In this document: in pieces, positions 1 through 13,320 of the stretch | Numbering within the stretch: position 1 is the first letter of the stretch | Layout of the letters: each line of letters opens with the position of its first letter | From: a virus | Reading direction: 5' to 3' (one strand) | DNA: 13,320 nt | Virus genome (UHGV): UHGV-1610946 | Translations under genes and position numbers: made by a program | Notes under the pieces: generated by a model | The model's database searches: none | Told to the model about the DNA's origin: nothing | Seen by the model: only the letters and a program-made list of their open reading frames with translations

Positions 1-2
1 AT

Positions 3-1250
3 AAATTTAAAGCCTATATTGCTGGTTTTGGCTCGGGCAAAACATGGGTTGGGTGTGGCGGCATATGCAAGGGGATTTGGGAGCATCCAGGTATAAATCA
101 GGGATATTTTGCGCCAACGTATCCCCAAATTCGCGATATTTTTTACCCTACAGTGGAAGAAGTTGCTGCTGACTGGGGATTGAACGTAAAAATTAATGAG
201 GGAAATAAAGAGGTTCACTTTTATTACGGACGCCAGTATCGGGGAACCACTATCTGCAGATCGATGGAGAAGCCACAAACGATCGTCGGTTTCAAAATTG
301 GTAATGCGTTGGTGGATGAACTGGACATTTTGCCGAAGGAAAAAGCCAGAACGGCGTGGCGCAAGATAATTGCGCGTATGCGTTATAAGATTGATGGACT
401 TCGCAACGGTATTGACGTTACAACCACGCCGGAAGGATTCAAATTTGTCTACGAGCAGTTTGTTAAAGCCGTGCGTGAAAAAACAGAGCTGGCCTCACTG
501 TATGGTCTGGTGCAGGCATCTACTTTCGATAATGAAAAGAACCTGCCAGCAGATTACATTCCTTCGCTTCTTGAATCATACCCTCCAGAGCTGATTAAAG
601 CCTATCTGCGAGGACAGTTTACTAACCTGACAAGTGGTACTGTTTACCATCAGTTTGACCGGAAACTGAATAATTGCGAAGAAGTGGAGCAGCCAGGGGA
701 GCCGATTTATATTGGGATGGATTTTAACGTTGGAAAGATGGCGGGAATCGTCCATGTGCTGCGTTTGGGGCTTCCATGTGCGGTAACTGAAATCATCAAT
801 GCCTACGATACGCCGGATATGATCCGCATCATTAAAGAACGCTTCTGGCTGTATGATGGGAATGATTACCGGAAAGTGAGGGAAATTTATATTTATCCAG
901 ATGCTTCCGGGGATTCCAGAAAATCAAGTAACGCAAGTACGACGGATATAGCCCAGCTTAAGCAGGCTGGTTTTAACGTTGTGGTGAACAGCTCGAACCC
1001 GCCAGTAAAAGATCGCGTTAACTCAATGAATGCAATGTTCTGCAATGCCAATGGTGAGCGTCGCTATAAAGTTAATGTGAAGCGTTGCCCGTTATATGCC
1101 GAATCTCTGGAGCAACAGGTCTGGGATGAGAAGGGGGAGCCTGATAAAAAATCTGGCAATGATCACCCGAATGATGCCGGAGGTTATTTCATCGTTAAGC
1201 AATTCCCTATTGTCAAACCGACCGGAAGAGTCACATCACTTCGGATTTAA
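3..1250 (+). CDS. Terminase large subunit, 5'-truncated (gene continues upstream of the window)
   Basis: The frame of ORF 153..1250 is open back to position 3 with no stop. Translation from position 3 gives KFKAYIAGFGSGKTW, a Walker A P-loop (AxxxxGKT), so the ATPase domain starts at the window edge; 153 is only an internal GTG. Downstream acidic motifs (IGMDFN, IYPDASGD, HPNDAGG) fit the terminase nuclease domain. It sits directly upstream of the portal gene. Confidence 0.85.
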   Translation, partial: KFKAYIAGFGSGKTWVGCGGICKGIWEHPGINQGYFAPTYPQIRDIFYPTVEEVAADWGLNVKINEGNKEVHFYYGRQYRGTTICRSMEKPQTIVGFKIGNALVDELDILPKEKARTAWRKIIARMRYKIDGLRNGIDVTTTPEGFKFVYEQFVKAVREKTELASLYGLVQASTFDNEKNLPADYIPSLLESYPPELIKAYLRGQFTNLTSGTVYHQFDRKLNNCEEVEQPGEPIYIGMDFNVGKMAGIVHVLRLGLPCAVTEIINAYDTPDMIRIIKERFWLYDGNDYRKVREIYIYPDASGDSRKSSNASTTDIAQLKQAGFNVVVNSSNPPVKDRVNSMNAMFCNANGERRYKVNVKRCPLYAESLEQQVWDEKGEPDKKSGNDHPNDAGGYFIVKQFPIVKPTGRVTSLRI

Positions 1251-1252
1251 TT

Positions 1253-2659
1253 ATGGCTGATATATCAACACCCAACCTCGACTATAACGATATGCTGGAG
1301 GCGTGGGATATTAACGACGCACTGATGGGCGGTACGCTTGAAATGCGCAGGCAGGGGGAAAATTATCTCCCAAAATGGCCTAACGAAGATGAAGACGCTT
1401 ATAAAAAACGCCTGTCTGTGGCTACGCTACTTCCTGTGTATGAAGAAAGCATCAAGCAAAATATTGGGCGCATATTTGCAGAGCCGACAGTATTGAGTGA
1501 GGAAACGCCGGCAAAAATCAGGGAATATGCAGAAAATATCGACATGGAGGGAAGCCGACTGGATGTGTGGGCGCAGCAATTTTTCAGCCTCGCATTTCAG
1601 TATGGTGTGGCACATGCGCTGGTGGACTATCCACGAACGGATATGAAAGAGATTCGGACAAAAGCCGATGAAAACGCGGCCGGTAGTCGTCCGTACGTTA
1701 CGATGCTGAATCCACGCCAGGTTATTGGATGGAAATCGAAAGTTGAAAAAGGGAAAGTTGTTCTCACTGATTTGCGTATAAAAGAGGTCATCATTATTGA
1801 TGGTGATGATTTCGGGCAGAAGAAGGTGGAGCAGATCCGCCATATTATGCCCCGTCGAGTTGAAATTTATCGACGTAGCGAAGGCACTAATGGCGAATCT
1901 GTCTGGACGCTTCATGAGTCATGGAATACCAGCCGTGATGATATTCCTCTGGTAACACTGTACACGAAGAAAACAGGATTTATGCGTGGTACACCGCCAT
2001 TGCTTAATCTTGGCTTGCTGAATATCAAGCACTGGCAAAGCCAGAGCGAGCAGGACAATATTCTTCATGTTGCCCGCGTTCCATTGCTGGTGGCCTACGG
2101 GCTGGACAGGAATGAAGAACTGACGGTTGGTGCATCCACCGCTACGATTTTTGAGGACAGAACAAAAAATGGCCTCGAATATGTTGAACATAGTGGCGCA
2201 GCGATAGAATCTGGCGAAACATCACTTGAGAAGCTGGAAAATCAGATGCGTCATGCCGGCGCTAAACTTCTGCGTGCTGAAAATACATCCACCAAATCTG
2301 TTGATCAGACTAATGAAGAGCGAATGCAGGAAAACTCGCCGCTTTATACAATGGCGAACTCCCTCGAAGATGCCCTCGATAATATTCTCCAGATAATGGC
2401 GGAATGGATCGGAGAGAGTTGCGGTGGCAATGTGGATGTGCGCACTGAACTGGATGTATCTGCCCAGGTGTTTGACTCATCCTCCGCGCTGGCTGTTCAG
2501 TCATTGCGTCAGGGCGGTGATATACGTCAGATTGATGCGATTCGGGTGTTGCAGGCGTTGAAATTTATCGATCAGGATTCCCGTCCAGAGGAAGTGATCG
2601 ATGAATTAAAAAATCAGAGTGTAATGCTGATGGAAATCAATGATGCAAACCGTGAATGA
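1253..2659 (+). CDS. Portal protein (putative)
   Basis: 468-aa ORF starting 2 nt after the terminase stop and lying between TerL and the MuF-like gene, the canonical portal position. Size fits portal proteins. No diagnostic motif was verified from memory. Confidence 0.7.
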   Translation: MADISTPNLDYNDMLEAWDINDALMGGTLEMRRQGENYLPKWPNEDEDAYKKRLSVATLLPVYEESIKQNIGRIFAEPTVLSEETPAKIREYAENIDMEGSRLDVWAQQFFSLAFQYGVAHALVDYPRTDMKEIRTKADENAAGSRPYVTMLNPRQVIGWKSKVEKGKVVLTDLRIKEVIIIDGDDFGQKKVEQIRHIMPRRVEIYRRSEGTNGESVWTLHESWNTSRDDIPLVTLYTKKTGFMRGTPPLLNLGLLNIKHWQSQSEQDNILHVARVPLLVAYGLDRNEELTVGASTATIFEDRTKNGLEYVEHSGAAIESGETSLEKLENQMRHAGAKLLRAENTSTKSVDQTNEERMQENSPLYTMANSLEDALDNILQIMAEWIGESCGGNVDVRTELDVSAQVFDSSSALAVQSLRQGGDIRQIDAIRVLQALKFIDQDSRPEEVIDELKNQSVMLMEINDANRE

Positions 2660-3755
2660 ACGGCTGCGTGATGAATCAATTGCTCATGCAGTCTGGATAT
2701 CCCGCTATAGCACTGGCGTGGCTGCCAGAATGGTGAAAATACTGAATGACAGCGATGCGGAACTTACTGCTCGCCTGCTGATAGCACTGGACAGCCTCGA
2801 TCCAGGTAGTTTTACCGTTAAGCGCCTGGAGTCACTTCTGGCGAGCGTCAGAGAGGTTAACCGCACTGCTATTAACAGCATGTTTACCAGTCTCTCCGGA
2901 GAGCTGAACGAGCTGGCAATTTATGAGGCTGGTTATCAGTTAAGTCTGTTTGATTCTATGCTACCTGATTTTGTTGCTGATGTTCACCCTCTGGTTGGTA
3001 TCTCTCCTGATGCACTTTATGCCGCTGCAATGGCGCGACCATTTCAGGGACGACTGCTCAGTGAGTGGGCCTCAGATCTTGAGGCGGATCGGCTCAGACG
3101 CATAACAAATACAGTGCGTCAGGGTTTTTTGCTGGGGGATACCAATGAGCAGATCGCAAGAAAAATTCGGGGACATGTCAGTAAGGGATTTCAGGATGGT
3201 GCATTGCAGATGAGCCGGGCTAATGCGGCCAGCATTGCAAAAACAGCGGTTGGACATCTTGCTGCTACTGCCCGTGAGAGTTTTGCCAGCGCGAATAATG
3301 ATTTGATTAAGGGTAAGCAATGGTTATCAACGCTTGATAATCGTACTACGCCACAATGTCGAATCAGGGATCGCCTCAAATATACGCTGAATAATAAACC
3401 TGTAGGTCACAGCGTGCCTTATTTGCAGGGGCCGGGAAAAATTCATTTCTGCTGCCGCTCAACGGAAACGTTCATTCTGAAATCAGCGAAGGAACTGGGT
3501 ATTGATGTTCGCGATATTTCCCCGGCTGAGCGGGCCAGCATGGATGGCGTGGTGGCCGGAGATACAACCTACAGGGAATGGTTTTTGCGTCAGCCTTACA
3601 CCAGACAAAAACAGATTGTGGGGGAAACCCGAGCAAAGCTGATTCGGGATGGTGGTATGTCGCCAGATGAATTTTACACCGATAAAGGCGAATGGCTGAC
3701 GCTGAAGCAGCTCCGTGAGCGTGATGCACAGGTATTCAGAAAAGCAGGGATTTAA
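2640..3755 (+). CDS. Head morphogenesis protein, Mu F-like / SPP1 gp7 family
   Basis: 371-aa ORF overlapping the portal stop by 20 nt. Contains LDNRTTPQCR, which resembles the conserved motif of Phage_Mu_F-type proteins. Position between portal and scaffold is typical. The start could instead be a downstream in-frame codon. Confidence 0.75.
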   Translation: MMQTVNERLRDESIAHAVWISRYSTGVAARMVKILNDSDAELTARLLIALDSLDPGSFTVKRLESLLASVREVNRTAINSMFTSLSGELNELAIYEAGYQLSLFDSMLPDFVADVHPLVGISPDALYAAAMARPFQGRLLSEWASDLEADRLRRITNTVRQGFLLGDTNEQIARKIRGHVSKGFQDGALQMSRANAASIAKTAVGHLAATARESFASANNDLIKGKQWLSTLDNRTTPQCRIRDRLKYTLNNKPVGHSVPYLQGPGKIHFCCRSTETFILKSAKELGIDVRDISPAERASMDGVVAGDTTYREWFLRQPYTRQKQIVGETRAKLIRDGGMSPDEFYTDKGEWLTLKQLRERDAQVFRKAGI

Positions 3756-3774
3756 ATAAATCATTTATTACAAC

Positions 3775-3802
3775 AGGCTACCTTCGGGTGGCCTTTTTTA
3801 TT
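3775..3802 (+). terminator. Intrinsic-terminator-like hairpin (7-bp stem, cUUCGg tetraloop, T6 run)
   Basis: GGCTACC(3776-3782) TTCG GGTGGCC(3787-3793) pairs as a 7-bp stem including one G-U wobble, followed directly by TTTTTTATT. Lies 20 nt after the MuF-like stop. Confidence 0.6.
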
Positions 3803-3859
3803 GCTGCGATCCGGATGGTGAGCAGCGTAACTGTCGGAAGACTTAAACCAGGTACTAAT

Positions 3860-4624
3860 ATGAAACTGAAAACGGTCGAGATTAACGGAAAACAATACGC
3901 AGAAATTGATACTGCTGGCCTGCCAGTTTATGTGCACGACGATGGTAAAGAAATTGGCTTCGATGCACCGCTGGCGACAAAAAAAATTACAGAGCTTAAT
4001 AGCGAGGCAAAAAATCATCGCCTGGCTAAAGAAGCTGCAGAGGAAAAACTGGCTAAGTTTGCCGCTATCGAAGACCCGAAGAAGGCGATCGAGGCACTGG
4101 AAATGCTGTCAAAAATCGACCAGAAAAAGCTGCTCGATGCGGGACAGGTTGACCAGGTTAAGGCAGAAATTACGAAAAATTTTCAGCAGCAATTAGATGA
4201 AGAAAAGCAACGCTCTCAGATGCTGGAGAAGCAGCTTTACGATTCTATGATTGGCGGTAGTTTTGCGGGTTCAAAATATATTGCCGATAAAATTGCGATC
4301 CCGGCAGATTTATTACAATCACGCTTCGGGCAGGCATTCAAAGTGGAAGAAGGGAGGATCGTTGCTTATGACGCTTCCGGCAACAAAATTTATTCCCGCG
4401 CGAAGCCTGGCGAACTGGCGCAGTTTGATGAGGCGCTGGAGTTCCTTGTCGAAAATTACCCTCAGAAAGACTACATCCTGAAAGCCAGTGGCAACAATGG
4501 CGGCGGCTCCCGTCCGACACAGCATGATATTGGTCAGAAAACGATGAAACGCTCTGCTTTTGATGCACTGGATGTTGCAGGTAAGCAAAACGCATTGAAA
4601 GACGGTATCACAATCGTTGATTAA
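3860..4624 (+). CDS. Putative head scaffolding protein
   Basis: Lies between the MuF-like gene and the major capsid gene. The product is rich in charged residues, with heptad-like stretches (KEAAEEKLAKFAAIEDPKKAIEALEMLSKIDQKKL) typical of scaffold proteins. Start is uncertain: the listed ORF begins at 3788 inside the terminator hairpin, which is implausible; in-frame ATGs occur at 3815 and 3860, the latter with a weak AGG upstream. Confidence 0.5.
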   Translation: MKLKTVEINGKQYAEIDTAGLPVYVHDDGKEIGFDAPLATKKITELNSEAKNHRLAKEAAEEKLAKFAAIEDPKKAIEALEMLSKIDQKKLLDAGQVDQVKAEITKNFQQQLDEEKQRSQMLEKQLYDSMIGGSFAGSKYIADKIAIPADLLQSRFGQAFKVEEGRIVAYDASGNKIYSRAKPGELAQFDEALEFLVENYPQKDYILKASGNNGGGSRPTQHDIGQKTMKRSAFDALDVAGKQNALKDGITIVD

Positions 4625-4633
4625 CACATTTGT

Positions 4634-4653
4634 CAGCTTCCGGATGGGAGCTG
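4634..4653 (+). other. Stable hairpin in the scaffold-capsid intergenic region (8-bp stem, GGAT loop, no T-run)
   Basis: CAGCTTCC(4634-4641) GGAT GGGAGCTG(4646-4653) gives seven Watson-Crick pairs plus one G-U. Begins 10 nt after the scaffold stop. No U-tract follows, so it is not a canonical terminator. Confidence 0.35.
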
Positions 4654-4722
4654 GTGTCAGGGCTGGATAGCTCATTACTCCATCTATTCACAATTACGCA
4701 AATTTTTAAGGAATATTTAATT

Positions 4723-5862
4723 ATGGCTGGAAATACCCTGACCGGGTTGATCCCGACTATTTATACCGCCCTGGATGTTGTATCCCGTGAGCAGGTAGGT
4801 TTTATCCCTGCGGTAGCAAAAAACGCAAAAGCTGACGCCGCAGCAAAAGATCAGACGGTAACCGCGCCAGTTGCGCCTGAGGCGAAAACCGAAGATATCG
4901 TACCGGGGCCGTCAGCTCCGAATACCGGTGATCAAAATATTGGCACTGTTGATGTAAAAATTACTAAATCCAAAATGGCACCGGTTAAATGGAATGGTGA
5001 AGAACAACTGGCTCTTGGTCCTTCAGGGACTTACAACACCATTCTGGCTGATCAGTTCAAGCAGGCTTTTCGCGCCCTTGCAAACGAGGTTGAGGCTGAT
5101 CTTGGTGCGTTGTATTTCGGTGCTTCCCGCGCCGTGGGAACCGCAGGGACAACGCCGTTTGGTGTTAAAGATGATCTTTCTGATGCTGCTCTGGCTCGTC
5201 AGGTTCTGGAGGATAACGGCGCACCGACAACCGATCTGCAGATGGTGCTTGGCTCCACTGCCATTGCTAATTTGCGCGGAAAACAGTCTGTATTGTTTAA
5301 AGTGAATGAATCCGGCACTGAACAGCTACTGCGTGAGGGCGTGTTGGGGCGTCTGGAGGGATTCAATATTCACAGTTCGGCAGGTGTGAAACGAGCGCCA
5401 AAGGTTGCTGCAACTGGTTATCTCGTGAATGGAGAGAAAAAAGAAGGCGATGTTCTTATTTCCATTGATACTGGTTCGGGGAGTATTTCTGCAGGTCAGA
5501 TTGTTACGTTCGCTGGTGATCCGAATCAGTATGTTGTGGCAGCAGCGACCAGCAATCTGATTACTCTTGCAGCGCCCGGACTGCGTCAGGATCTGGCCGA
5601 TGATACTGCCATCACAGTTGTTGGGGCCTTTACTGCAAATATGGCGTTTGATCGCAACGCGTTTCTGCTGGCATCCCGTACTCCGGCAATGCCGGAAGGT
5701 GGCGATAATGCTGATGATGTAATGAATGTTACGGACCCGATTTCAGGGATTACGTTCCAGATTGCACTGTATCGTCAGTATCGCCAGGTGCGCTATGAAG
5801 TTGGACTGGCATGGGGTGTTTCATCAGTGAAGCCGGCACATGGTTGTCTGATTCTTGGTTAA
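4723..5862 (+). CDS. Major capsid protein (putative)
   Basis: 379 aa from ATG 4723, which has a good Shine-Dalgarno (AAGGA at 4708-4712, 10-nt spacer). The listed ORF starts at 4630 with no RBS. Position is immediately after the scaffold gene. Family assignment is from context only. Confidence 0.65.
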   Translation: MAGNTLTGLIPTIYTALDVVSREQVGFIPAVAKNAKADAAAKDQTVTAPVAPEAKTEDIVPGPSAPNTGDQNIGTVDVKITKSKMAPVKWNGEEQLALGPSGTYNTILADQFKQAFRALANEVEADLGALYFGASRAVGTAGTTPFGVKDDLSDAALARQVLEDNGAPTTDLQMVLGSTAIANLRGKQSVLFKVNESGTEQLLREGVLGRLEGFNIHSSAGVKRAPKVAATGYLVNGEKKEGDVLISIDTGSGSISAGQIVTFAGDPNQYVVAAATSNLITLAAPGLRQDLADDTAITVVGAFTANMAFDRNAFLLASRTPAMPEGGDNADDVMNVTDPISGITFQIALYRQYRQVRYEVGLAWGVSSVKPAHGCLILG

Positions 5863-5871
5863 ACATTCAAA

Positions 5872-5895
5872 CGGGGCTTCGGCCCCATTTTTAAT
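5872..5895 (+). terminator. Intrinsic-terminator-like hairpin (5-bp GC stem, cUUCGg tetraloop, T5 run)
   Basis: GGGGC(5873-5877) TTCG GCCCC(5882-5886) followed by ATTTTTAAT. Lies 10 nt after the capsid stop. Confidence 0.6.
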
Positions 5896-5904
5896 GGGGG
5901 GCAT

Positions 5905-6081
5905 ATGGCCGGATTAACTAAAGAGCAAAGAGCACAGCGTGAAGCCGCACAAAAAACGCAAATTGAGTTAGTGGTTATGGTGACCGATTATCAGATGTTT
6001 CCCGGCGCACCAACTATCGCTAATGTTCATCCTGATGAAGTTGACAACTGGAAGGCTATGGGCTGGAAAACTCAGGAGTAA
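5905..6081 (+). CDS. Small hypothetical protein (58 aa), absent from the supplied ORF track
   Basis: ATG 5905 is preceded by a G6 run (5896-5901). The frame is open for 58 codons (MAGLTKEQRAQREAAQKTQIELVVMVTDYQMFPGAPTIANVHPDEVDNWKAMGWKTQE) to TAA 6079-6081, and the next gene's Shine-Dalgarno (AGGAG) overlaps its last codons. It fills an otherwise non-coding gap between the capsid and connector genes. Confidence 0.4.
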   Translation: MAGLTKEQRAQREAAQKTQIELVVMVTDYQMFPGAPTIANVHPDEVDNWKAMGWKTQE

Positions 6082-6084
6082 CAC

Positions 6085-6480
6085 ATGATCACTTACGTGA
6101 CCTGTGATGACGTTGATAATGCGTTTGGGAACGCCTGGACGAGTGAGAACGCTAAAAATAAAGCTGTTTTAATGGCTAATGCCTGGCTTAATGGCTTCAA
6201 CCTGAAAATTAACCCATCCCGTATTCCGGAAGAGGTAAAACTTGCGGGAGCATATGCAGCCAGAATTGCCTCATTTGGTAAGTTGTTTCAGCAGAAAAAT
6301 GATTCTGGCGTTGTTATCAGTAAAGCCGTGTCGGCTGACGGGGTCAGTGTATCGAAATCATTTTCTGAGTTGCCAGCAAACAGCACTGCATTGCTTGAAC
6401 CCGATTTACAGCTTGCGATAGCACTGCTGAAACCGTACGGACTTAGTCGCTCACAAGTCAGGGTTGTGAGGGGGGGATAA
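6085..6480 (+). CDS. Putative head-tail connector / head completion protein
   Basis: 131-aa ORF with Shine-Dalgarno AGGAG 6 nt upstream. It is the first of four small, translationally coupled genes between capsid and major tail, the canonical position for gp6-like connector proteins. No motif verified. Confidence 0.45.
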   Translation: MITYVTCDDVDNAFGNAWTSENAKNKAVLMANAWLNGFNLKINPSRIPEEVKLAGAYAARIASFGKLFQQKNDSGVVISKAVSADGVSVSKSFSELPANSTALLEPDLQLAIALLKPYGLSRSQVRVVRGG

Positions 6481-6863
6481 TGGGGCTTCGTGAAGAGATT
6501 CAGTCAGAGGTTGCCGCTGCTTTTGATGAGGATTTAGCGGACGCCGTGAGTGATTTTTCTGGTTATTACGTTACGCACCGGCACTGGGATCCTGTGACGG
6601 AAACTGGCGGCGAATCCACCGCAATCTATACCGGGCGAGGCGTGTTGACACGTTATAAGCTGGGCAGAATTGATGGGATTAATATTTTGCATGGTGACCT
6701 TAAATTAACCGCTCTGGTATGCGAGGTTACGGATAAACCAGCTGTCGACCATATTATTGAGATTTATGATCCTGTATCAAGGCAGTTACAACGATACGAG
6801 GTAATTACAGCAAGTTTAGATCCTTCCGCATCAGTTTACTCTATCCAGTTAAGGAGAGCGTAA
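6480..6863 (+). CDS. Putative head-tail adaptor / head closure protein
   Basis: 127-aa ORF whose start overlaps the previous stop (TAATG), with a G-rich Shine-Dalgarno (GAGGGGGGG) upstream. Assigned by size and position in the neck-gene block. Confidence 0.4.
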   Translation: MGLREEIQSEVAAAFDEDLADAVSDFSGYYVTHRHWDPVTETGGESTAIYTGRGVLTRYKLGRIDGINILHGDLKLTALVCEVTDKPAVDHIIEIYDPVSRQLQRYEVITASLDPSASVYSIQLRRA

Positions 6864-7244
6864 ATGGCAAAGGCATGGGATATAGAACCGTCAATATTTG
6901 CCGGGATGATTGAGGAAGATGTAGGGCTGAAGATTCGCTACATCGCTATGCAGATTCTTACTGCTATTGATATTGCTGCTCCGGTTGATACCGGACGTTT
7001 CAGAAATAACAACCTGGTGTCGTTACAGCATCCCGATTTTGGTATATCTGATAACGTGGATCCGAACGGTACGATTGCTGTTCAGCGTGGGATCGGGGTT
7101 ATTTCGAAAGCTGCAAATTACGGGGTTATTTATATCCAGAATAACCTTCCTTATGCAGAGGCTCTTGAAAACGGTCATTCACAACAAGCGCCAACTGGCG
7201 TGTATGCCAACGCTTTTTATGGTGTTTTACAGGCTTACAAATGA
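6864..7244 (+). CDS. Putative neck/tail-completion protein (HK97 gp10-like)
   Basis: 126-aa ORF with Shine-Dalgarno AAGGAGA upstream. Contains PVDTGRFRNN, which resembles the DTG-containing motif I recall for HK97 gp10-family proteins. Position fits. Confidence 0.45.
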   Translation: MAKAWDIEPSIFAGMIEEDVGLKIRYIAMQILTAIDIAAPVDTGRFRNNNLVSLQHPDFGISDNVDPNGTIAVQRGIGVISKAANYGVIYIQNNLPYAEALENGHSQQAPTGVYANAFYGVLQAYK

Positions 7245-7633
7245 AGTTTACTGAAATCAGAAATACGGTTATTTCCAGAATGACGGCACAGACGATTATT
7301 GATGGAAAAGACGTATTGTATCCGAACGGGCCAACGTTCGATCCTTCCGGTAAGTTAATCTGGGCGCGGTTAAGTAATATTCCCGGGCAGGCTGGGGTTA
7401 ATGAAATTGGCGCGGGGCCGGTTGTTTATCGCACGGGGATAATCATTATTCAGTTATTTGTCCCCGCAGGTTCTGGTTCAAAACTCATTACTGAGACAGC
7501 CGATAAATTGCGGGAACTGTTTGAGTTTCAGGATGACGATCGTCTCAGTTACCAGGCTGTTTCCTCAATAGCCGTCGGCGAAAAGAATGGCTGGTTCCAG
7601 CTTAATCTTCAAATTCCATATCGCGCGCTCTAG
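7241..7633 (+). CDS. Putative tail terminator / tail completion protein
   Basis: 130-aa ORF with ATGA start-stop overlap with the previous gene, lying immediately upstream of the major tail gene (the position of lambda gpU-type proteins). Confidence 0.4.
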   Translation: MKFTEIRNTVISRMTAQTIIDGKDVLYPNGPTFDPSGKLIWARLSNIPGQAGVNEIGAGPVVYRTGIIIIQLFVPAGSGSKLITETADKLRELFEFQDDDRLSYQAVSSIAVGEKNGWFQLNLQIPYRAL

Positions 7634-7659
7634 CGCAATTAATGACATAGGAGGCTTCT

Positions 7660-8622
7660 GTGAGTTCAGGTGCAAAGGTTATCTCGGCATTTATCCGGGA
7701 GACAGTTGCAGGCACTACGCCAGCAAGTGGTGACTGGAGTTTATTAAAACGCACAAGCTGGGGAGTAAAACCCACCCAGAATAAAGGCGAAAATAATGAG
7801 ATTGGTGGCTCCCGGATGGCTCAGGGGGCGACGCCTGGCACTGTGGATGTCGGCGGTGATGTTGGTACCAAATTTCGCTGGGGTCAACATGATGATTTTC
7901 TTGCATCCTGTTTCGGCGCGGAATGGTCAGGCGATTCTCTGACAATGGGGAATGAGCGAATAACATTTTCTCTGGCGACCTATGCGTCCGATGTCGGAAT
8001 TGCCTCTGTCGTCAGAGGAGCGCAGGTTGGCTCATGGAAAATGCAGATCCCTAACGACGGCGATATTACAGCGACCGTAACCTTTGCCGGGCTGGGCTGG
8101 GAAACAAAGGCCGATGATACGAATTTTATCAAAGGCAAACCTGTGGATAGTGCAGGAAAGTTACGCTATTCGTTTAAGGAGGTTTCAGCAGTAAGCCTGA
8201 ATGGTGTTGCCGGAGGTAACGGTTTTTGTATCGACAGTTTTGATATTCAGTTCGATAACAAACTCCAGACACAGCGTTGTATCGGGACTGGCTCGCCTTA
8301 TGCAGGAGCAAATATTCCGACTACTTTTACACCGTCCGGTACGGTGACGCTTTCATGGTCTAAAGCCGCGTGGGAAATCTGGAGTAAAACACTGACTGGA
8401 GAAACAGTTCCGTTCAGCTTCACGCTTTCGAATGGAGAGGGGGCATACACTTTCAGTTTCCCGAAGGTTCAGGTGTCAGGTGAATGGCCTGATGGGGGTA
8501 ATACTGACATTATCCAGGTTCAATTGAGCATTACCGCAGCAGATGAAGCACCTACGATAACCAGAAAAAAATGCTCCCCGACTGCCGTGATCGCAAAAGC
8601 CAGTGCTGATGCGATTAGTTGA
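7660..8622 (+). CDS. Major tail (tube) protein (putative)
   Basis: 320-aa ORF with GTG start and a strong Shine-Dalgarno (AGGAGG at 7648-7653, 6-nt spacer). Lies directly upstream of the chaperone frameshift pair and tape measure gene, the conserved major tail position. Product is rich in Gly/Ser/Thr. Confidence 0.65.
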   Translation: MSSGAKVISAFIRETVAGTTPASGDWSLLKRTSWGVKPTQNKGENNEIGGSRMAQGATPGTVDVGGDVGTKFRWGQHDDFLASCFGAEWSGDSLTMGNERITFSLATYASDVGIASVVRGAQVGSWKMQIPNDGDITATVTFAGLGWETKADDTNFIKGKPVDSAGKLRYSFKEVSAVSLNGVAGGNGFCIDSFDIQFDNKLQTQRCIGTGSPYAGANIPTTFTPSGTVTLSWSKAAWEIWSKTLTGETVPFSFTLSNGEGAYTFSFPKVQVSGEWPDGGNTDIIQVQLSITAADEAPTITRKKCSPTAVIAKASADAIS

Positions 8623-8634
8623 TTTTCCGTTATT

Positions 8635-8661
8635 CCCCCTGTGGTACTGCACTACAGGGGG
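8635..8661 (+). promoter_or_regulatory. Hairpin after the major tail gene whose 3' arm overlaps the likely RBS of the chaperone gene
   Basis: CCCCCTGT(8635-8642) and ACAGGGGG(8654-8661) are perfect reverse complements (8-bp stem, up to 11 bp with a wobble). No T-run follows. The GGGGG of the right arm is the only Shine-Dalgarno-like element for ATG 8671. Confidence 0.45.
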
Positions 8662-8670
8662 ACGCATTGA

Positions 8671-9132
8671 ATGAGGTTATGGATGTTTATTCTTAATCAG
8701 AAAATTATCATCGGTGGAGAACGCTGGTTTACGCCAATGAAGGACTTAAAACCTGTAGACGGGTTAAAACTGTTGGTGGCAAGCAGCGATAACGATCAGT
8801 ATCGCTCCCGTAATGCATTAATCCGTCGTCACATTGAGAAAATGGATGCCAGTTTGCACGTCGGAACGAAGGAGTTTGATATTTCAAAGGTTTCCGAGGT
8901 AGATTCTGTTGATGATTTACTCATTGATAATGCTGCTCGTTATCTGCTGAAAGACTGGAAAGGGGTTGGTGAACTGGTTAATGGTGCTGAGGTTGCACTG
9001 GAATATACGCCAGAACGAGGGATCGCGCTGCTTAAGCAGAATCCAGAGTTGTACTGGCAGATCCTTGCAGAAGCAGCCAGCATCGCCCAGGGTAAAGAGC
9101 AGCAGAAGCAGGATACGATAAAAAAGCCATAG
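8671..9132 (+). CDS. Tail assembly chaperone (lambda gpG-like)
   Basis: 153-aa acidic ORF between the major tail and tape measure genes. A slippery heptamer lies 4 nt before its stop, and an overlapping -1 frame stays open for about 105 further codons. Start could instead be an in-frame ATG at 8683 or 8737. Confidence 0.6.
   Translation: MRLWMFILNQKIIIGGERWFTPMKDLKPVDGLKLLVASSDNDQYRSRNALIRRHIEKMDASLHVGTKEFDISKVSEVDSVDDLLIDNAARYLLKDWKGVGELVNGAEVALEYTPERGIALLKQNPELYWQILAEAASIAQGKEQQKQDTIKKP
9120..9126 (+). promoter_or_regulatory. Programmed -1 ribosomal frameshift slippery site A_AAA_AAG
   Basis: In the chaperone frame the codons are ATA AAA AAG CCA TAG. The heptamer A AAA AAG (9120-9126) is a classic Lys-tRNA slippery sequence. 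The -1 frame has no stop from 9096 to 9440. Confidence 0.6.
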
Positions 9133-9440
9133 CCGCCCAGCGGTGGTTATCGGAGTTCGGGGGAGAAAGGGGGGAAAAGGCAAGATGGAAGCGAGAAAAA
9201 CTCAGGTTGCCACCGATACCGGAACCAGAAATAGACCCGGTGCTTAAGGAATTGTTGTACGCCTATTCGGTAATATCCCGTGCCCGACGTTATGCTGGAA
9301 TGACCGGGGTGCCTTTGCCTTTATCTCTGACAGAGATAAATGAATATTTAGCCACTCATCCGGTATTGATTGAGCGCGATGAGTTTGAAGCAGTGATCTT
9401 TGCACTGGATGACCAGTATTTTCAGGATCAGTGTGTGTAG
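9123..9440 (+). CDS. Frameshift extension of the tail assembly chaperone (lambda gpT-like part of a G-T fusion)
   Basis: Frame is open from 9096 to the stop at 9438-9440 and is entered by a -1 slip at 9120-9126. The supplied ORF 9207..9440 has no ATG (it begins at TTG) and no RBS, consistent with expression only as a fusion. Predicted fusion is about 255 aa. Confidence 0.55.
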   Translation, partial: KAIAAQRWLSEFGGERGEKARWKREKLRLPPIPEPEIDPVLKELLYAYSVISRARRYAGMTGVPLPLSLTEINEYLATHPVLIERDEFEAVIFALDDQYFQDQCV

Positions 9441-9560
9441 TTGTTAATTACGTACACTCTGTTACAGAGATGTGATGGTGTCTTTAATTAAATCGATGAT
9501 GCTCCTGGAGAAAAGCATTGCGTGGCCTCGTAATCGCTATATCTACTATTATGTCGCCTG

Positions 9561-9587
9561 AAACCCACTTCGGTGGGCTTTTTGTTG
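9561..9587 (+). terminator. Terminator-like hairpin (5-bp stem, cUUCGg tetraloop, T5 run) upstream of the tape measure gene
   Basis: CCCAC(9564-9568) TTCG GTGGG(9573-9577) followed by CTTTTTGTTG. It lies in a 163-bp non-coding gap between the chaperone extension and the tape measure start, 17 nt before that gene's GGAG Shine-Dalgarno. Confidence 0.5.
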
Positions 9588-9603
9588 TCTGGAGTTTTAA
9601 TAA

Positions 9604-12600
9604 ATGGCAGAGCAAACCTCGCGTCTCGCAATAATTATTGATAGCACTGGAGCAAAAAATAATGCTGACAATCTGACCTCCTCATTAGTCAAAATGACGC
9701 AGGCCGGGGAAACTGCTGCAAATAGCGCAGGGAAAGTGACTAAGGCAACAGAAGATGAGAAGAACGCGCTCGCAAAATTAAAAGCAGCTATTGATCCAGT
9801 TGGTGCCGCAATTGATACTGTCGGTCGACGCTATTCTGAATTAAAGAAATTTTTCGATAAAGGGCTTATTGATAAAGAAGAATATGAATTTCTTGTCCGT
9901 AAACTTAATGAAACCACAGAGGAATTGAGCGGGGTTGCGCAAGCGCAGAGAGAAGCCGAGAAGGCCGGAAAACTTGCTGCCGCCCAGCAGGAAGCGCAGG
10001 CTCAGGCCTTTCAAAGAATGCTGGACAAGATCGACCCTCTGGCTGCGGCGCTAAGAAATCTTGAACAACAGCAGGATGAACTTAATGCTGCGTTTGCATC
10101 CGGGAAAATAAATGGTTCTCAGTTTGAGAATTATAGCCGAAAAATACAGGAAACACGGCGAGAGCTTACCGGAGAGGCTCAGGCAGAGCGAGAAGCAGCA
10201 AAAGCGCATGATGAACAGGTTGCTGCTTTGCAACGTCTGATTGCTCAACTTGACCCTGTCGGAACTGCTTTTAATCGTCTGGTAGAACAACAGAAACAGC
10301 TCAATGAAGCAAAAGCTAAGGGGATGCTCTCTCCTGAAATGTATGAGGAACTTTCTGGAAAACTTCGTGCTATGCGGAGTGAGCTTGAGGTTACTCAATC
10401 TCAATTAAGCAAAACCGGAATGTCGGCAAAACAAACGGCTTTTGCTATGCGCATGTTGCCTGCACAAATGACGGATATTGTTGTTGGGTTGTCCACTGGT
10501 CAGTCGCCTTTTATGGTGTTAATGCAGCAGGGCGGCCAGCTAAAAGATATGTTCGGTGGGATTGGCCCGGCGATCAAAGGTGTTGGTTCTTATGTGCTGG
10601 GATTAATTAATCCTTTTACCCTGGCCGCAGCAGCCGTTGGCGTCTTAGGGCTGGCTTACTATAAAGGCTCTCAGGAGCAGGACGAATTTAATAAATCTCT
10701 TATTCTTACCGGAAATCAGTTGGGGACAACCAGCGGGCAATTGGCCGATATAGCTCAACGTGCCGGGAATGCGGCTGATTCGACAACTGGCGCTGCGGCG
10801 GCAGTATTAAACCAGCTTGTGCGTTCGGGAAAGGTAGCGAGCAGTTCGCTGGAGCAAGTGACGACAGCGATAGTAAAAACGAGCGAAGTAACAGGAATAT
10901 CAACCGAACAACTGGTTAATGACTTCAATGAAATTGCAAAGGATCCTGTCAGTGCCATATCAAAACTTAATGATCAGTACCATTTTCTGACAATTGCGAC
11001 TTATAACCAGATTAAGGCGCTACAGGATGAAGGGAACCAGCAGGAGGCCGCCCGCATTGCGACAGAAGCATACTCATCCTCAATGATCCAGCGCACCAAC
11101 CAGATTAAAGAAAATCTTGGTTATCTTGAGGCTGCATGGAAAGCTGTCGCAGACTCCGCAAAATGGGCATGGGATTCCATGCTGGACATTGGCCGTGAGG
11201 CCTCCCTTGATCAAAAAATCTCAGATGTTCTCCGTCAAATTGATGAAATAGAAAAAAATACCCGACCCGGAGTTTTCGGGTTAGGTGGCATTGGAGATGG
11301 CGGAGCTCAAAATAAAAGGCTGGCACGATTAAAGCAGCAATTGGGCGTACTTCAAGCAGAAAAAATTGCTCAGGACGTCCTAAATTCATCAATAAACGAT
11401 TACAACAAGCGACAACAGGAAGGAATTGAACTCAGACAGAGAGCAGATGCCTTTTCAAAACAATATCAGACCCGGGAGCAGCAGAGAGCTAGTGAACTTG
11501 CAAAACTGGAAAAGCTAAAGAGTCAGTATTCAAAGGAAGAATATAATAATTTTATCGCTCAAATAAATGAGCGTTATAAAGATCCAAAGCAACCAAAGGC
11601 GAAAGGTTATTCGGATGATGCTGCCCAACGAATGATTGATCATCTGAATCAACAGAATGCGTTACTAAGTTCACAAACTGAATTAACCGTTAAATTAAGT
11701 TCCTCTGAACAGGAACTGGTTAAGTGGCGTCAGCAGATTGCCGACCTGGAGTCACGACCGTCATCGAAATTAACCCAGGATCAGAAATCGCTTCTCTTAC
11801 ACCGGGAAGAAATAACCGCGTTGATGGAGAAAAATGTTGCGATTGAAAAAAATAACAGGCTAATCAAGGAATCCGCCGAAATAGCTGCATGGCGTGATTT
11901 ATTGCAGGCTTCGATTGATAATCGTCAACAGGGGTATGATATTCAGATTGCTGGTTATGGGGTTGGCGATAAAAATCAGCAACGCCAGCAGGAATTACTG
12001 CGGATTGAACGTGAATATAACAATCAGCGTCTGCAACTTGAACGTGACTATGCAGATAAATCCCGTGGGATGTCAAATCATGTTTTTCAGGAGAAAATGC
12101 AGGCTCTGAATGATGCTCTGGAACGAGAAAAAGAAATTGTCAGACAGAAAAACGAGCAGCTCGATATTCAGGCAGGAGACTGGGTTAGTGGTGCCTCCCA
12201 GGGATTCAATAACTGGCTGGATGACACTAAGGATATCAGTGAGCAGATAAAATCAACCACGACTCAGATGTTTGATGGAATGACCGATGCGCTGGGTGAT
12301 TTTGTCACGACAGGCAAGGCAAATTTTCGTTCTTTCGCTACTTCCGTGATTTCGGATCTTAGTCGAATAGCATTAAAGGCTTCAATTACTGGGATTTTCG
12401 ACAGCATTAGTAACAGTTCTTCGGGGGGGATTTTAGGAACTATCGGGAGTGCTATTAGTAAATTTATTCCGAATGCAAAGGGCGGTGTTTATGAGTCTCC
12501 GTCATTGAACACGTATTCGAACGGTATTTATGATTCCCCGCAATTTTTTGCTTTTGCAAAAGGGGCTGGTGTTTTTGGTGAGGCTGGTCCGGAAGCCATT

Positions 12601-12837
12601 ATGCCATTAACACGAACATCCGATGGTTCTCTTGGTGTCAGAGCTATTAATAGTAAAAGTGGTAATGGAGGCGGAGATATTACCTATGCCCCTGTATACC
12701 AAATCACTATTCAAAATGACGGCCAGAATGGAGAGATTGGCCCTCAGGCAATAAAAGCACTTATGGGGATGGTTGATCAGCGGGTGCAGGGCAATCTGTT
12801 AAATATGCGACGTGATGGGGGAATGTTAAGTGGCTAA
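9604..12837 (+). CDS. Tail tape measure protein (lambda gpH-like)
   Basis: 1077-aa ORF with Shine-Dalgarno GGAG 9 nt upstream, lying immediately downstream of the frameshifted chaperone pair and upstream of gpM/gpL homologues. It has a long coiled-coil-like N-terminal region with three internal repeats of roughly 70-80 aa, a hydrophobic Gly/Ala-rich segment ([35 protein letters not shown]), and a C-terminal [11 protein letters not shown] segment that resembles lambda-family tape measure C-termini as I recall them. Confidence 0.9.
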
Positions 12838-12871
12838 TACGGAAGAATTTCACTGGTTACCAGAGGATGGA

Positions 12872-13168
12872 ATGAAAACAGAAAATAAACCATCGATAAA
12901 AACTGTAAGATTTGGCGATGGTTATGAGCAACGAAGTCCAAATGGACTTAATCATTCTCTGCGCGTTTTCACCTGTGATTTCAAAGTTGAGGCGAATGAA
13001 CGTGATTCATTTGAAAAATTTTTAGCCCGGCATGAAGGCTATAAATCTTTTTTTTGGCGCCCGCCTGGTATTAACAGAAAAATCAGAGTGGTGTGTCGAA
13101 CGTGGTCAGCGACAGAACATATCACCTATACCGATTTTTCGTGTCAGTTTGACGAAGTGGTGATCTGA
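12872..13168 (+). CDS. M: Minor tail protein, lambda gpM-like
   Basis: Translation from ATG 12872 (MKTENKPSIKTVRFGDGYEQRSPNGLN ... FDEVVI) aligns with lambda gpM as I recall it (MKTFRWKV...VRKVRFGDGYSQRAPAGLN ... FEQVVN), at similar length. Shine-Dalgarno GAGGA lies just upstream. The listed ORF starts at GTG 12830, overlapping the tape measure stop; 12872 is preferred by homology. Confidence 0.85.
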   Translation: MKTENKPSIKTVRFGDGYEQRSPNGLNHSLRVFTCDFKVEANERDSFEKFLARHEGYKSFFWRPPGINRKIRVVCRTWSATEHITYTDFSCQFDEVVI

Positions 13169-13281
13169 TGCAGGACATACAACAGGAAACGCTGAATGAA
13201 TGCATTCGTGCGGAGCAGTCGGCCAGCGTGGTGCTCTGGGAAATCGACCTGACCGAGGTAGGCGGGGATCGCTACTTTTTC
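13168..13281 (+). CDS. L: Minor tail protein, lambda gpL-like (N-terminal 38 codons only; truncated by adapter sequence)
   Basis: ATG overlaps the gpM stop (TGATG). Translation MQDIQQETLNECIRAEQSASVVLWEIDLTEVGGDRYFF is near-identical to the lambda gpL N-terminus as recalled (MQDIRQETLNECTRAEQSASVVLWEIDLTEVGGERYFF). The reading frame then runs into adapter at 13282. Confidence 0.85.
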
Positions 13282-13320
13282 AGATCGGAAGAGCGTCGTG
13301 TAGGGAAAGAGTGTAGATCT
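13282..13320. other. Illumina TruSeq adapter sequence (sequencing/assembly artefact)
   Basis: AGATCGGAAGAGCGTCGTGTAGGGAAAGAGTGTAGATCT is an exact 39-nt match to the reverse complement of the 3' end of the Illumina universal adapter (the standard read-2 trimming sequence). Confidence 0.95.

Follow-up and report, generated by a model that had tools for sequence, protein, structure and literature searches.

Mosaic joints between lambdoid phages, as treated by the modular genome hypothesis, have a recurrent form: relatedness switches sharply at a gene border, the exchanged block is >90% identical, its flank shows a short stretch of intermediate identity, and tail genes move together (PMC3945230, PMC9836094). 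Lambda recombines with defective prophages by relaxed homologous recombination; its exchange with Rac is Red-dependent, and the lower-identity stretches that flank the mosaics have been described as "recombination traces" (PMC3945230). Tail genes are co-transferred as a block (PMC9836094). In the lambda tail, gpM forms a hexamer ring that has one face on the tube and the other on the gpL/gpJ ring (PMC10721106), so that a break between the M and L genes divides the tail into a shaft unit and a tip unit. The joint analyzed here lies at this border. It has the same form as the described lambdoid joints and differs from them in nothing of kind, except that the break is inside the tail module (between distal-tail ring and hub) and not between head and tail. 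It is thus an ordinary lambdoid mosaic of a kind already known, in an element that is public and very common. The literature contains general work on mosaicism, and no paper on this specific joint or on intact Rac tails was found there.

The window is the whole analyzed stretch of 13,320 nucleotides (UHGV virus genome UHGV-1610946), of which 13,281 are phage bases. The explanation that best fits the data, and in which confidence is high, is that the window is the late-gene arm (head and tail) of an intact E. coli prophage, lambdoid and of the Rac family, that the sharp switch at the M/L border is a real recombination joint, and that the tail is a chimera, which would assemble and work. The features of the window are listed in Table 1; head and tail genes were assigned by matches to Pfam, NCBIfam, and PHROG profiles.

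Table 1. Features of the window, with positions counted from its first base.
Feature	Position	Strand	Evidence	Remarks
Late operon	1-13281	+	ORF listing and profile searches	All genes co-directional
TerL (large terminase)	1-1250	+	Terminase_6N/6C (Pfam)	First 17 codons upstream of the window
Portal	1253-2659	+	DUF4055	
MuF-type head morphogenesis protein	2640-3755	+	Phage_Mu_F	
Scaffold	3788-4624	+	DUF6651, PHROG 206	
Coat protein, P22 type	4630-5862	+	Profile match	
Four connector proteins	6085-7633	+	PHROG connector families, Pfam	Ad1, Hc1, Neck1/tail completion, tail terminator
Tube protein	7660-8622	+	Phage_tube_2	
G-like chaperone	8671-9132	+	PHROG 313	-1 frameshift extension open to 9440
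Tape measure protein	9604-12837	+	TMP_2, TMP_4, Tape_meas_lam_C (Pfam)	1077 aa
Rac-type gpM (distal tail protein)	12830-13168	+	PF05939	112 aa, GTG start
Transition zone	13146-13182	+	BLAST onsets, chi-square break, base-by-base alignment	Last 22 nt of M, TGATG, first 15 nt of L
Lambda-type gpL (hub protein, HDI domain)	13168-13281	+	Lambda gpL comparison	First 38 codons; cut at 13281
Non-phage sequence AGATCGGAAGAGCGTCGTGTAGGGAAAGAGTGTAGATCT	13282-13320	.	Every database match stops at 13281	39 bases

Database searches give 100% identity over 1-13281 to three deposited phages, vB_EcoS-606R9, -611R4, and -683R6 (ON470581, ON470587, and ON470595), and 99% identity to "Salmonella phage SPF_0923" (ON032529). 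The ON4705xx records are prophages of carbapenemase-producing E. coli, with attachment sites called by PHASTER, and RalR has been reported in three related records, namely vB_EcoS-683R6 and two others at 99.7% identity (bioRxiv 10.1101/2022.06.29.498070). A first, sequence-only reading of this DNA had held that uniform identity to a single known phage across head and tail would speak against a mosaic. Such identity is found, but trivially: the identical records are the same element and not an independent parent, hence the mosaic relation to lambda stands. ON032529 and ON470595 (loci L001 and L002, respectively) are 99-100% identical to the window up to 13281, and they serve as its stand-ins from full-length L onward.

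The ON4705xx and ON032529 records contain trkG, a ParB gene, and a YdaY-family gene, as does the cryptic prophage Rac of K-12. In ON032529 and ON470595 the window is flanked by a trkG/ParB/small-terminase stretch on one side and by L-K-I-J on the other; in ON032529, L-K-I-J is followed by lom-stf-tfa and then by the uspF-ompN-ydbK flank (the ttcA side). This is the layout of K-12 Rac, and the window thus represents the structural genes now missing from K-12. The surviving ydaY-ynaA region of K-12 is highly similar to the window (98.6% identity), in a match restricted to 8781-10538, so that ynaA matches the tape measure gene only up to 10538. Outside the window, K-12 Rac shares with ON032529 the trkG end, lom, stf, tfa, and the flank; L001 is 99.4% identical to K-12 both over the rzoR-to-ynaK stretch, which holds trkG, and over the uspF-ompN-ydbK flank. 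By comparison with the window-type element, K-12 Rac has lost the terminase-to-chaperone genes and also everything from the middle of the tape measure gene to lom, and for this latter reason it lacks the M/L joint. Nucleotide similarity across the structural arm, as would be expected of a Lambdavirus, is lacking: lambda has no detectable similarity to 1-13145, and its sole match in a database search is 13146-13281 (86.8% identity, E 4e-33) of the 13,281 phage bases. The contig should thus be annotated as Rac-family and not as lambda-family. The "complete genome" of SPF_0923 also holds the chromosomal genes sitABCD, uspF, ompN, and ydbK (L001 28143-35262), and the part that begins just beyond sitA and covers uspF, ompN, and the end of ydbK (L001 31799-34992) is 99.4% identical to E. 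coli K-12. ON032529 looks like a prophage region excised together with host flank, and its Salmonella host label is doubtful.

The head genes of the window are not lambda-like, as had been proposed from the sequence alone: none of the head, connector, or tube proteins has a significant BLASTP match to any lambda protein. The MuF-like protein and the scaffold of that proposal are recovered by profile matches. The absence of an obvious prohead protease is also upheld, as neither the ORF listing nor profile searches reveal a separate protease gene between the portal and coat genes. The description of TerL as a PBSX-type terminase with an N-terminal Walker A motif holds only for the motif (AGFGSGKT, residues 24-31 of the full-length protein). 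The PBSX-family model (TIGR01547) gives 31.8 bits where its cut-off asks for 105.05, even though the alignment is full length, and Pfam gives Terminase_6N and Terminase_6C instead; the PBSX label is therefore weak and was not retained. The closest named phage for the head module is Escherichia phage HK639 (portal 69%, MuF 50%, scaffold 61%, and coat 75% identity). The resemblance does not extend to the HK639 large terminase, which has no match to TerL of the window at E 1e-4, nor to the connectors, where Neck1 alone matches (38%), and the two elements differ in the tape measure protein (33-37%), M (31%), and L (32%). The MuF-family protein is labeled "NAD+--asparagine ADP-ribosyltransferase" in GenBank relatives; Pfam identifies the Phage_Mu_F domain only (residues 154-275), and the C-terminal ~95 residues match only PHROG families of unknown function.

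Between the tube and the tape measure genes, the G-like chaperone gene contains a canonical -1 slippery heptamer, A_AAA_AAG, at 9120-9126, 3 nt before its stop, and the -1 frame is open from ~9096 to 9440. This heptamer is the expected site of a predicted programmed frameshift of the G/GT type, which in this operon precedes the tape measure gene. The product of the latter is a distant homolog of lambda gpH (28% identity, BLASTP). The tape measure gene had been perceived by eye as more AT-rich than the head genes. The difference is slight for the gene as a whole (GC 0.451, against 0.477 in the head genes); its 5′ half is at 0.473, and the drop lies in the 3′ half (0.430) and in M (0.407). GC drops from ~0.47 to ~0.41 at ~11200-11300, within the tape measure gene, and this could correspond to another, older joint. 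In vB_EcoS-683R6 (ON470595.1, 14604-17837) the tape measure gene is annotated in two pieces, where the window has a single open frame of 1077 codons.

The assignment of gpM is firm at the level of the family. The profile Phage_min_tail (PF05939) scores 109.8 bits (cut-off 39), with residues 5-111 aligned on positions 1-108 of 108, and the solved structure of lambda gpM (8iyk_M, "Tail tip protein M") is matched with E 2e-25 (query 6-111 on chain 3-108). The gene also has the position typical of this family, between the tape measure gene and L, and is translationally coupled to both by overlaps: its GTG start overlaps the tape measure stop by 8 nt, and its stop and the start of L share the sequence TGATG. 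Within the family the divergence is large, with 42% amino acid identity to lambda gpM over 105 residues and 46% nucleotide identity between the two genes. By analogy with lambda, this gpM would be the adaptor between the tube and the hub.

The picture for gpL is different. Of its 38 residues present in the window, all but three (R5Q, T13I, and E34D) are those of lambda gpL, and the gene starts at the A of the TGATG shared with the M stop. In the stand-in records the full-length L proteins match the gpL profiles, with 332.9 bits for PF05100 in SPF_0923 and 328 bits for TIGR01600 (cut-off 70.75) in L002; the four cysteines of the [4Fe-4S] cluster (C173, C182, C205, and C212 in lambda), which lie beyond the window, are all kept in L002. 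These full-length copies remain similar to lambda (~92% nucleotide identity) over ~5 kb that take in L, K, I, and most of J. Protein identity to lambda is low up to the border (H 28%, M 42%) and high beyond it (L 95%, K 97%, I 75%, J 89%). The element and lambda agree in gene order and in the TGATG overlap of stop and start. They differ in composition on the shaft side only: GC of the 3′ half of H and of M is 0.41-0.43 in the element and 0.56-0.59 in lambda (H 0.59, M 0.56), whereas the part of L002 from L up to mid-J, where the locus ends, has a GC of 0.572, against 0.574 in lambda L-J. In vB_EcoS-683R6 (ON470595.1) no K gene is annotated at the expected place (18887-19261), where there is only a reverse-strand hypothetical ORF. 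L002 also shows a gap in the lambda match at 19270-19326, and its identity to L001 is 0.47 in the bin at window-equivalent 14230-14430.

The switch between these two regimes is abrupt. Similarity to lambda sets in at 13146, which is 22 nt before the M stop/L start, and BLAST matches to lambda-type phages all start at this very base. When 12830-13281 is aligned globally and codon-blind to lambda M plus the beginning of L, 43% of positions agree before 13146 and 87% from there on. The breakpoint analysis called for by the sequence-only reading places the maximum chi-square break after 13145, and the observed value was reached in none of 2000 permutations. Composition changes at the same place, with GC3 rising from 0.336 in M to 0.711 in the start of L (114 nt, GC 0.553). 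The claims of that reading about this border are thus confirmed: M is much more diverged than L, L departs from lambda at about three of its first 38 residues, and a recombination junction lies at or just upstream of the boundary, with identity to lambda going from ~43% to ~87-92% at 13146.

The transition zone (13146-13182) is partly conserved between all M types, at ~76-83% identity to lambda-type phages, and it is likely the crossover stretch. In the comparison with phage PhiR63_1, left of 13146 there is no homology, the zone itself has 9 mismatches in 37 positions, and from 13183 onward there are 353 nt without a mismatch, including all of 13183-13281 (100% identity).

A contrast between neighboring genes could also arise without recombination, if M and L had descended together from an ancestor shared with lambda and gpL were just far more constrained than gpM. 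The N-terminus of gpL is indeed conserved even in the distant Stx2a_WGPS2. Phages diverged throughout provide a calibration of whether M and L diverge together. Relative to the Rac-type proteins, M and L show 50% and 76% identity in Stx2a_WGPS2, and 31% and 32% in HK639; relative to lambda gpM and gpL, the values are 48% and 55% in a Providencia prophage, 41% and 55% in a Pantoea prophage, 42% and 48% in an Oceanisphaera prophage, and 31% and 45% in a Xenorhabdus prophage. Of the five diverged-phage comparisons that cover both genes, four show somewhat stronger conservation of L than of M, and in HK639 the two are about equal. However, when M is at 31-55% in such phages, L is at just 32-76% and never at 95%; with M at 42%, co-descent would predict L at ~45-55% and not the observed 95%. 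Synonymous sites are even less compatible with co-descent. Identity to lambda at third codon positions is 36/109 (33%) in M and 184/232 (79%) in L, and protein constraint cannot be the source of this contrast, as it cannot hold synonymous sites alike. Nor does co-descent agree with the jump of GC3 at the border (0.34 to 0.71), or with the identity of the window-type L to the L of a phage with lambda-type M (97%), which exceeds its identity to L in other Rac-type copies (90%). Unequal evolutionary rates are thus ruled out as the cause by synonymous sites, composition, and the calibration phages, and co-descent is very improbable as an account of the border.

The joint could also be thought an artifact, as it lies close to the end of the contig. 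The last 39 bases of the window are presumably an Illumina adapter. Identical relatives continue past 13281 with TGCAATGAGCAG, which is ordinary L sequence; as all matches stop at 13281, the truncation of L is artificial and due to a contaminated contig end, and this should be flagged in the annotation. An assembly chimera would be in keeping with a contig that stops 136 nt into the lambda-type segment next to an apparent adapter (13282-13320), and with the fact that E. coli genomes carry lambda-type L-K as a multi-copy repeat, such repeats often breaking or mis-joining short-read assemblies. Yet 707 complete genomes of E. coli, one chromosome of Shigella flexneri, and one E. ruysiae genome have the same M-L joint, base for base, and L continues normally in them. 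This rules out a chimera, whose probability is close to nil; the L-K repeat probably explains why the contig stops, but not the joint.

The recombination joint is in fact widespread. Of 5426 complete E. coli genomes, 707 contain the entire length of a 2.6-kb query that spans it. The Rac-type 3′ end of H with M, searched alone, occurs in 721 complete E. coli genomes, with one copy in each, whereas lambda-type L-K occurs in 4360, at a median of two places per genome. Among species-representative genomes, this M reaches ≥97% identity in just two, those of Shigella flexneri and E. ruysiae, where L is of the lambda type; the next best matches are at ≤44%. A tblastn search of 50,697 phage records with the Rac-type M gives 10 records at ≥99% and all others at <60%. 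Other than the near-identical copies (≥97%), relatives of the Rac-type M are all at or below ~51% identity. Neither the species-representative genomes nor the 50,697 phage records contain an intermediate, or a Rac-type M with a non-lambda L, which would be the parent that reveals the original event at the M/L border and its direction.

Three deep types of M can be distinguished, the Rac type, the lambda type (lambda, phi458, and PhiR63_1), and the PhiR49_2/Stx type, with ≤56% nucleotide identity between them. In contrast, the L genes that adjoin Rac-type, lambda-type, and PhiR49_2 M are 90-98% identical. Within the Rac lineage the relation is reversed: M is 95-100% identical, but L is just ~90% identical between some copies. 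In eight Rac-type copies the mean pairwise difference is 1.7% in the 3′ end of the tape measure gene and M and 7.0% in L, a fourfold contrast that is indicative only, as the copies were picked across the identity ranking and not at random. In these eight copies 13067-13180 is invariant, and polymorphism sets in at 13181, which is 13 nt into L. PhiR63_1, a carrier of lambda-type M, has an L 97% identical to that of the window type, and this includes the 353-nt perfect tract from 13183. Because L is more diverse than M and the 3′ end of H among Rac-type copies, exchange at the M/L border is recurrent rather than a single event, and the border is re-used.

These data suggest the following scenario. 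The left part (head, connectors, tube, chaperone, tape measure, and gpM) is of a low-GC lineage, for which the searches gave high-identity matches in Escherichia and Shigella alone. The hub and host-recognition block, starting with gpL and continuing with K, I, and J in the full-length copies, is of a high-GC lambda-type pool common to most E. coli prophages. The two parts would have been joined by recombination inside the ~37-nt stretch 13146-13182, probably kept similar in all M types by the C-terminus of gpM, the translational coupling signal, and the N-terminus of gpL. Homologous exchange with co-resident lambda-type prophages or infecting phages may run leftward through J, I, K, and L and would halt at the M/L border, where homology ends. 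As the M genes are too different, exchange must stop there, which would make the border both sharp and re-used. The tip unit (gpL, K, I, and J) would thus be repeatedly replaced, while the shaft unit (tube, chaperone, tape measure protein, and gpM) would stay. We infer relaxed recombination of the Red or RecET type as the enzymology of this exchange. The transfer of L-J appears to have been into the Rac lineage, because the GC of the tip unit matches that of lambda's H and M and because lambda-type L-K is far more widespread.

It is unlikely that the joint, while real, arose in either of two other ways, that is, by the reverse transfer (lambda-type lineages having taken L-J from a Rac-type ancestor) or by illegitimate recombination kept at the gene border. 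In their favor, no ancestral partner of the Rac-type M was found, and ~70% of the mosaics surveyed in PMC3945230 lack a flanking trace of homology. The similarity of 13146-13182 could also result from coding and ribosome-binding constraints alone, in which case the crossover might be illegitimate and have survived selection at the gene border. Against these alternatives, the GC of L-J (0.57) fits lambda H and M (0.59 and 0.56) and not the Rac-type H 3′ end and M (0.43 and 0.41), and lambda-type L-K is found in 4360 genomes as opposed to 721 for Rac-type M. The graded stretch of 76-83% identity, placed exactly between no homology and 100% identity, has the pattern of a trace of homologous recombination (PMC3945230). 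With homologous exchange at the border as the preferred reading, one may further ask whether 13146-13182 is a true recombination "linker", that is, a preferred crossover point common to otherwise unrelated M types, at which single-copy Rac-type prophages repeatedly re-equip with hub and host-range blocks from lambda-type prophages of the same cell. This extension is tentative and, for the moment, somewhat doubtful.

The border is a clean and well-bounded example of a textbook phenomenon, in which a tail is splittable between its distal-tail ring and its hub. A gpM only 42% identical to that of lambda adjoins a lambda-type gpL in hundreds of genomes, and homology-limited exchange between resident prophages could be tested at the M/L border, which offers a natural site for it. 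A decayed copy is found in strain EcPF15 (L007, NZ_CP054227.1). In this Rac-type prophage a deletion fuses the portal gene to the 3′ part of the tape measure gene (L007 1175-4008), and an ISEc31 element interrupts the I/J region (L007 5783-7867); the M-L joint is still intact.
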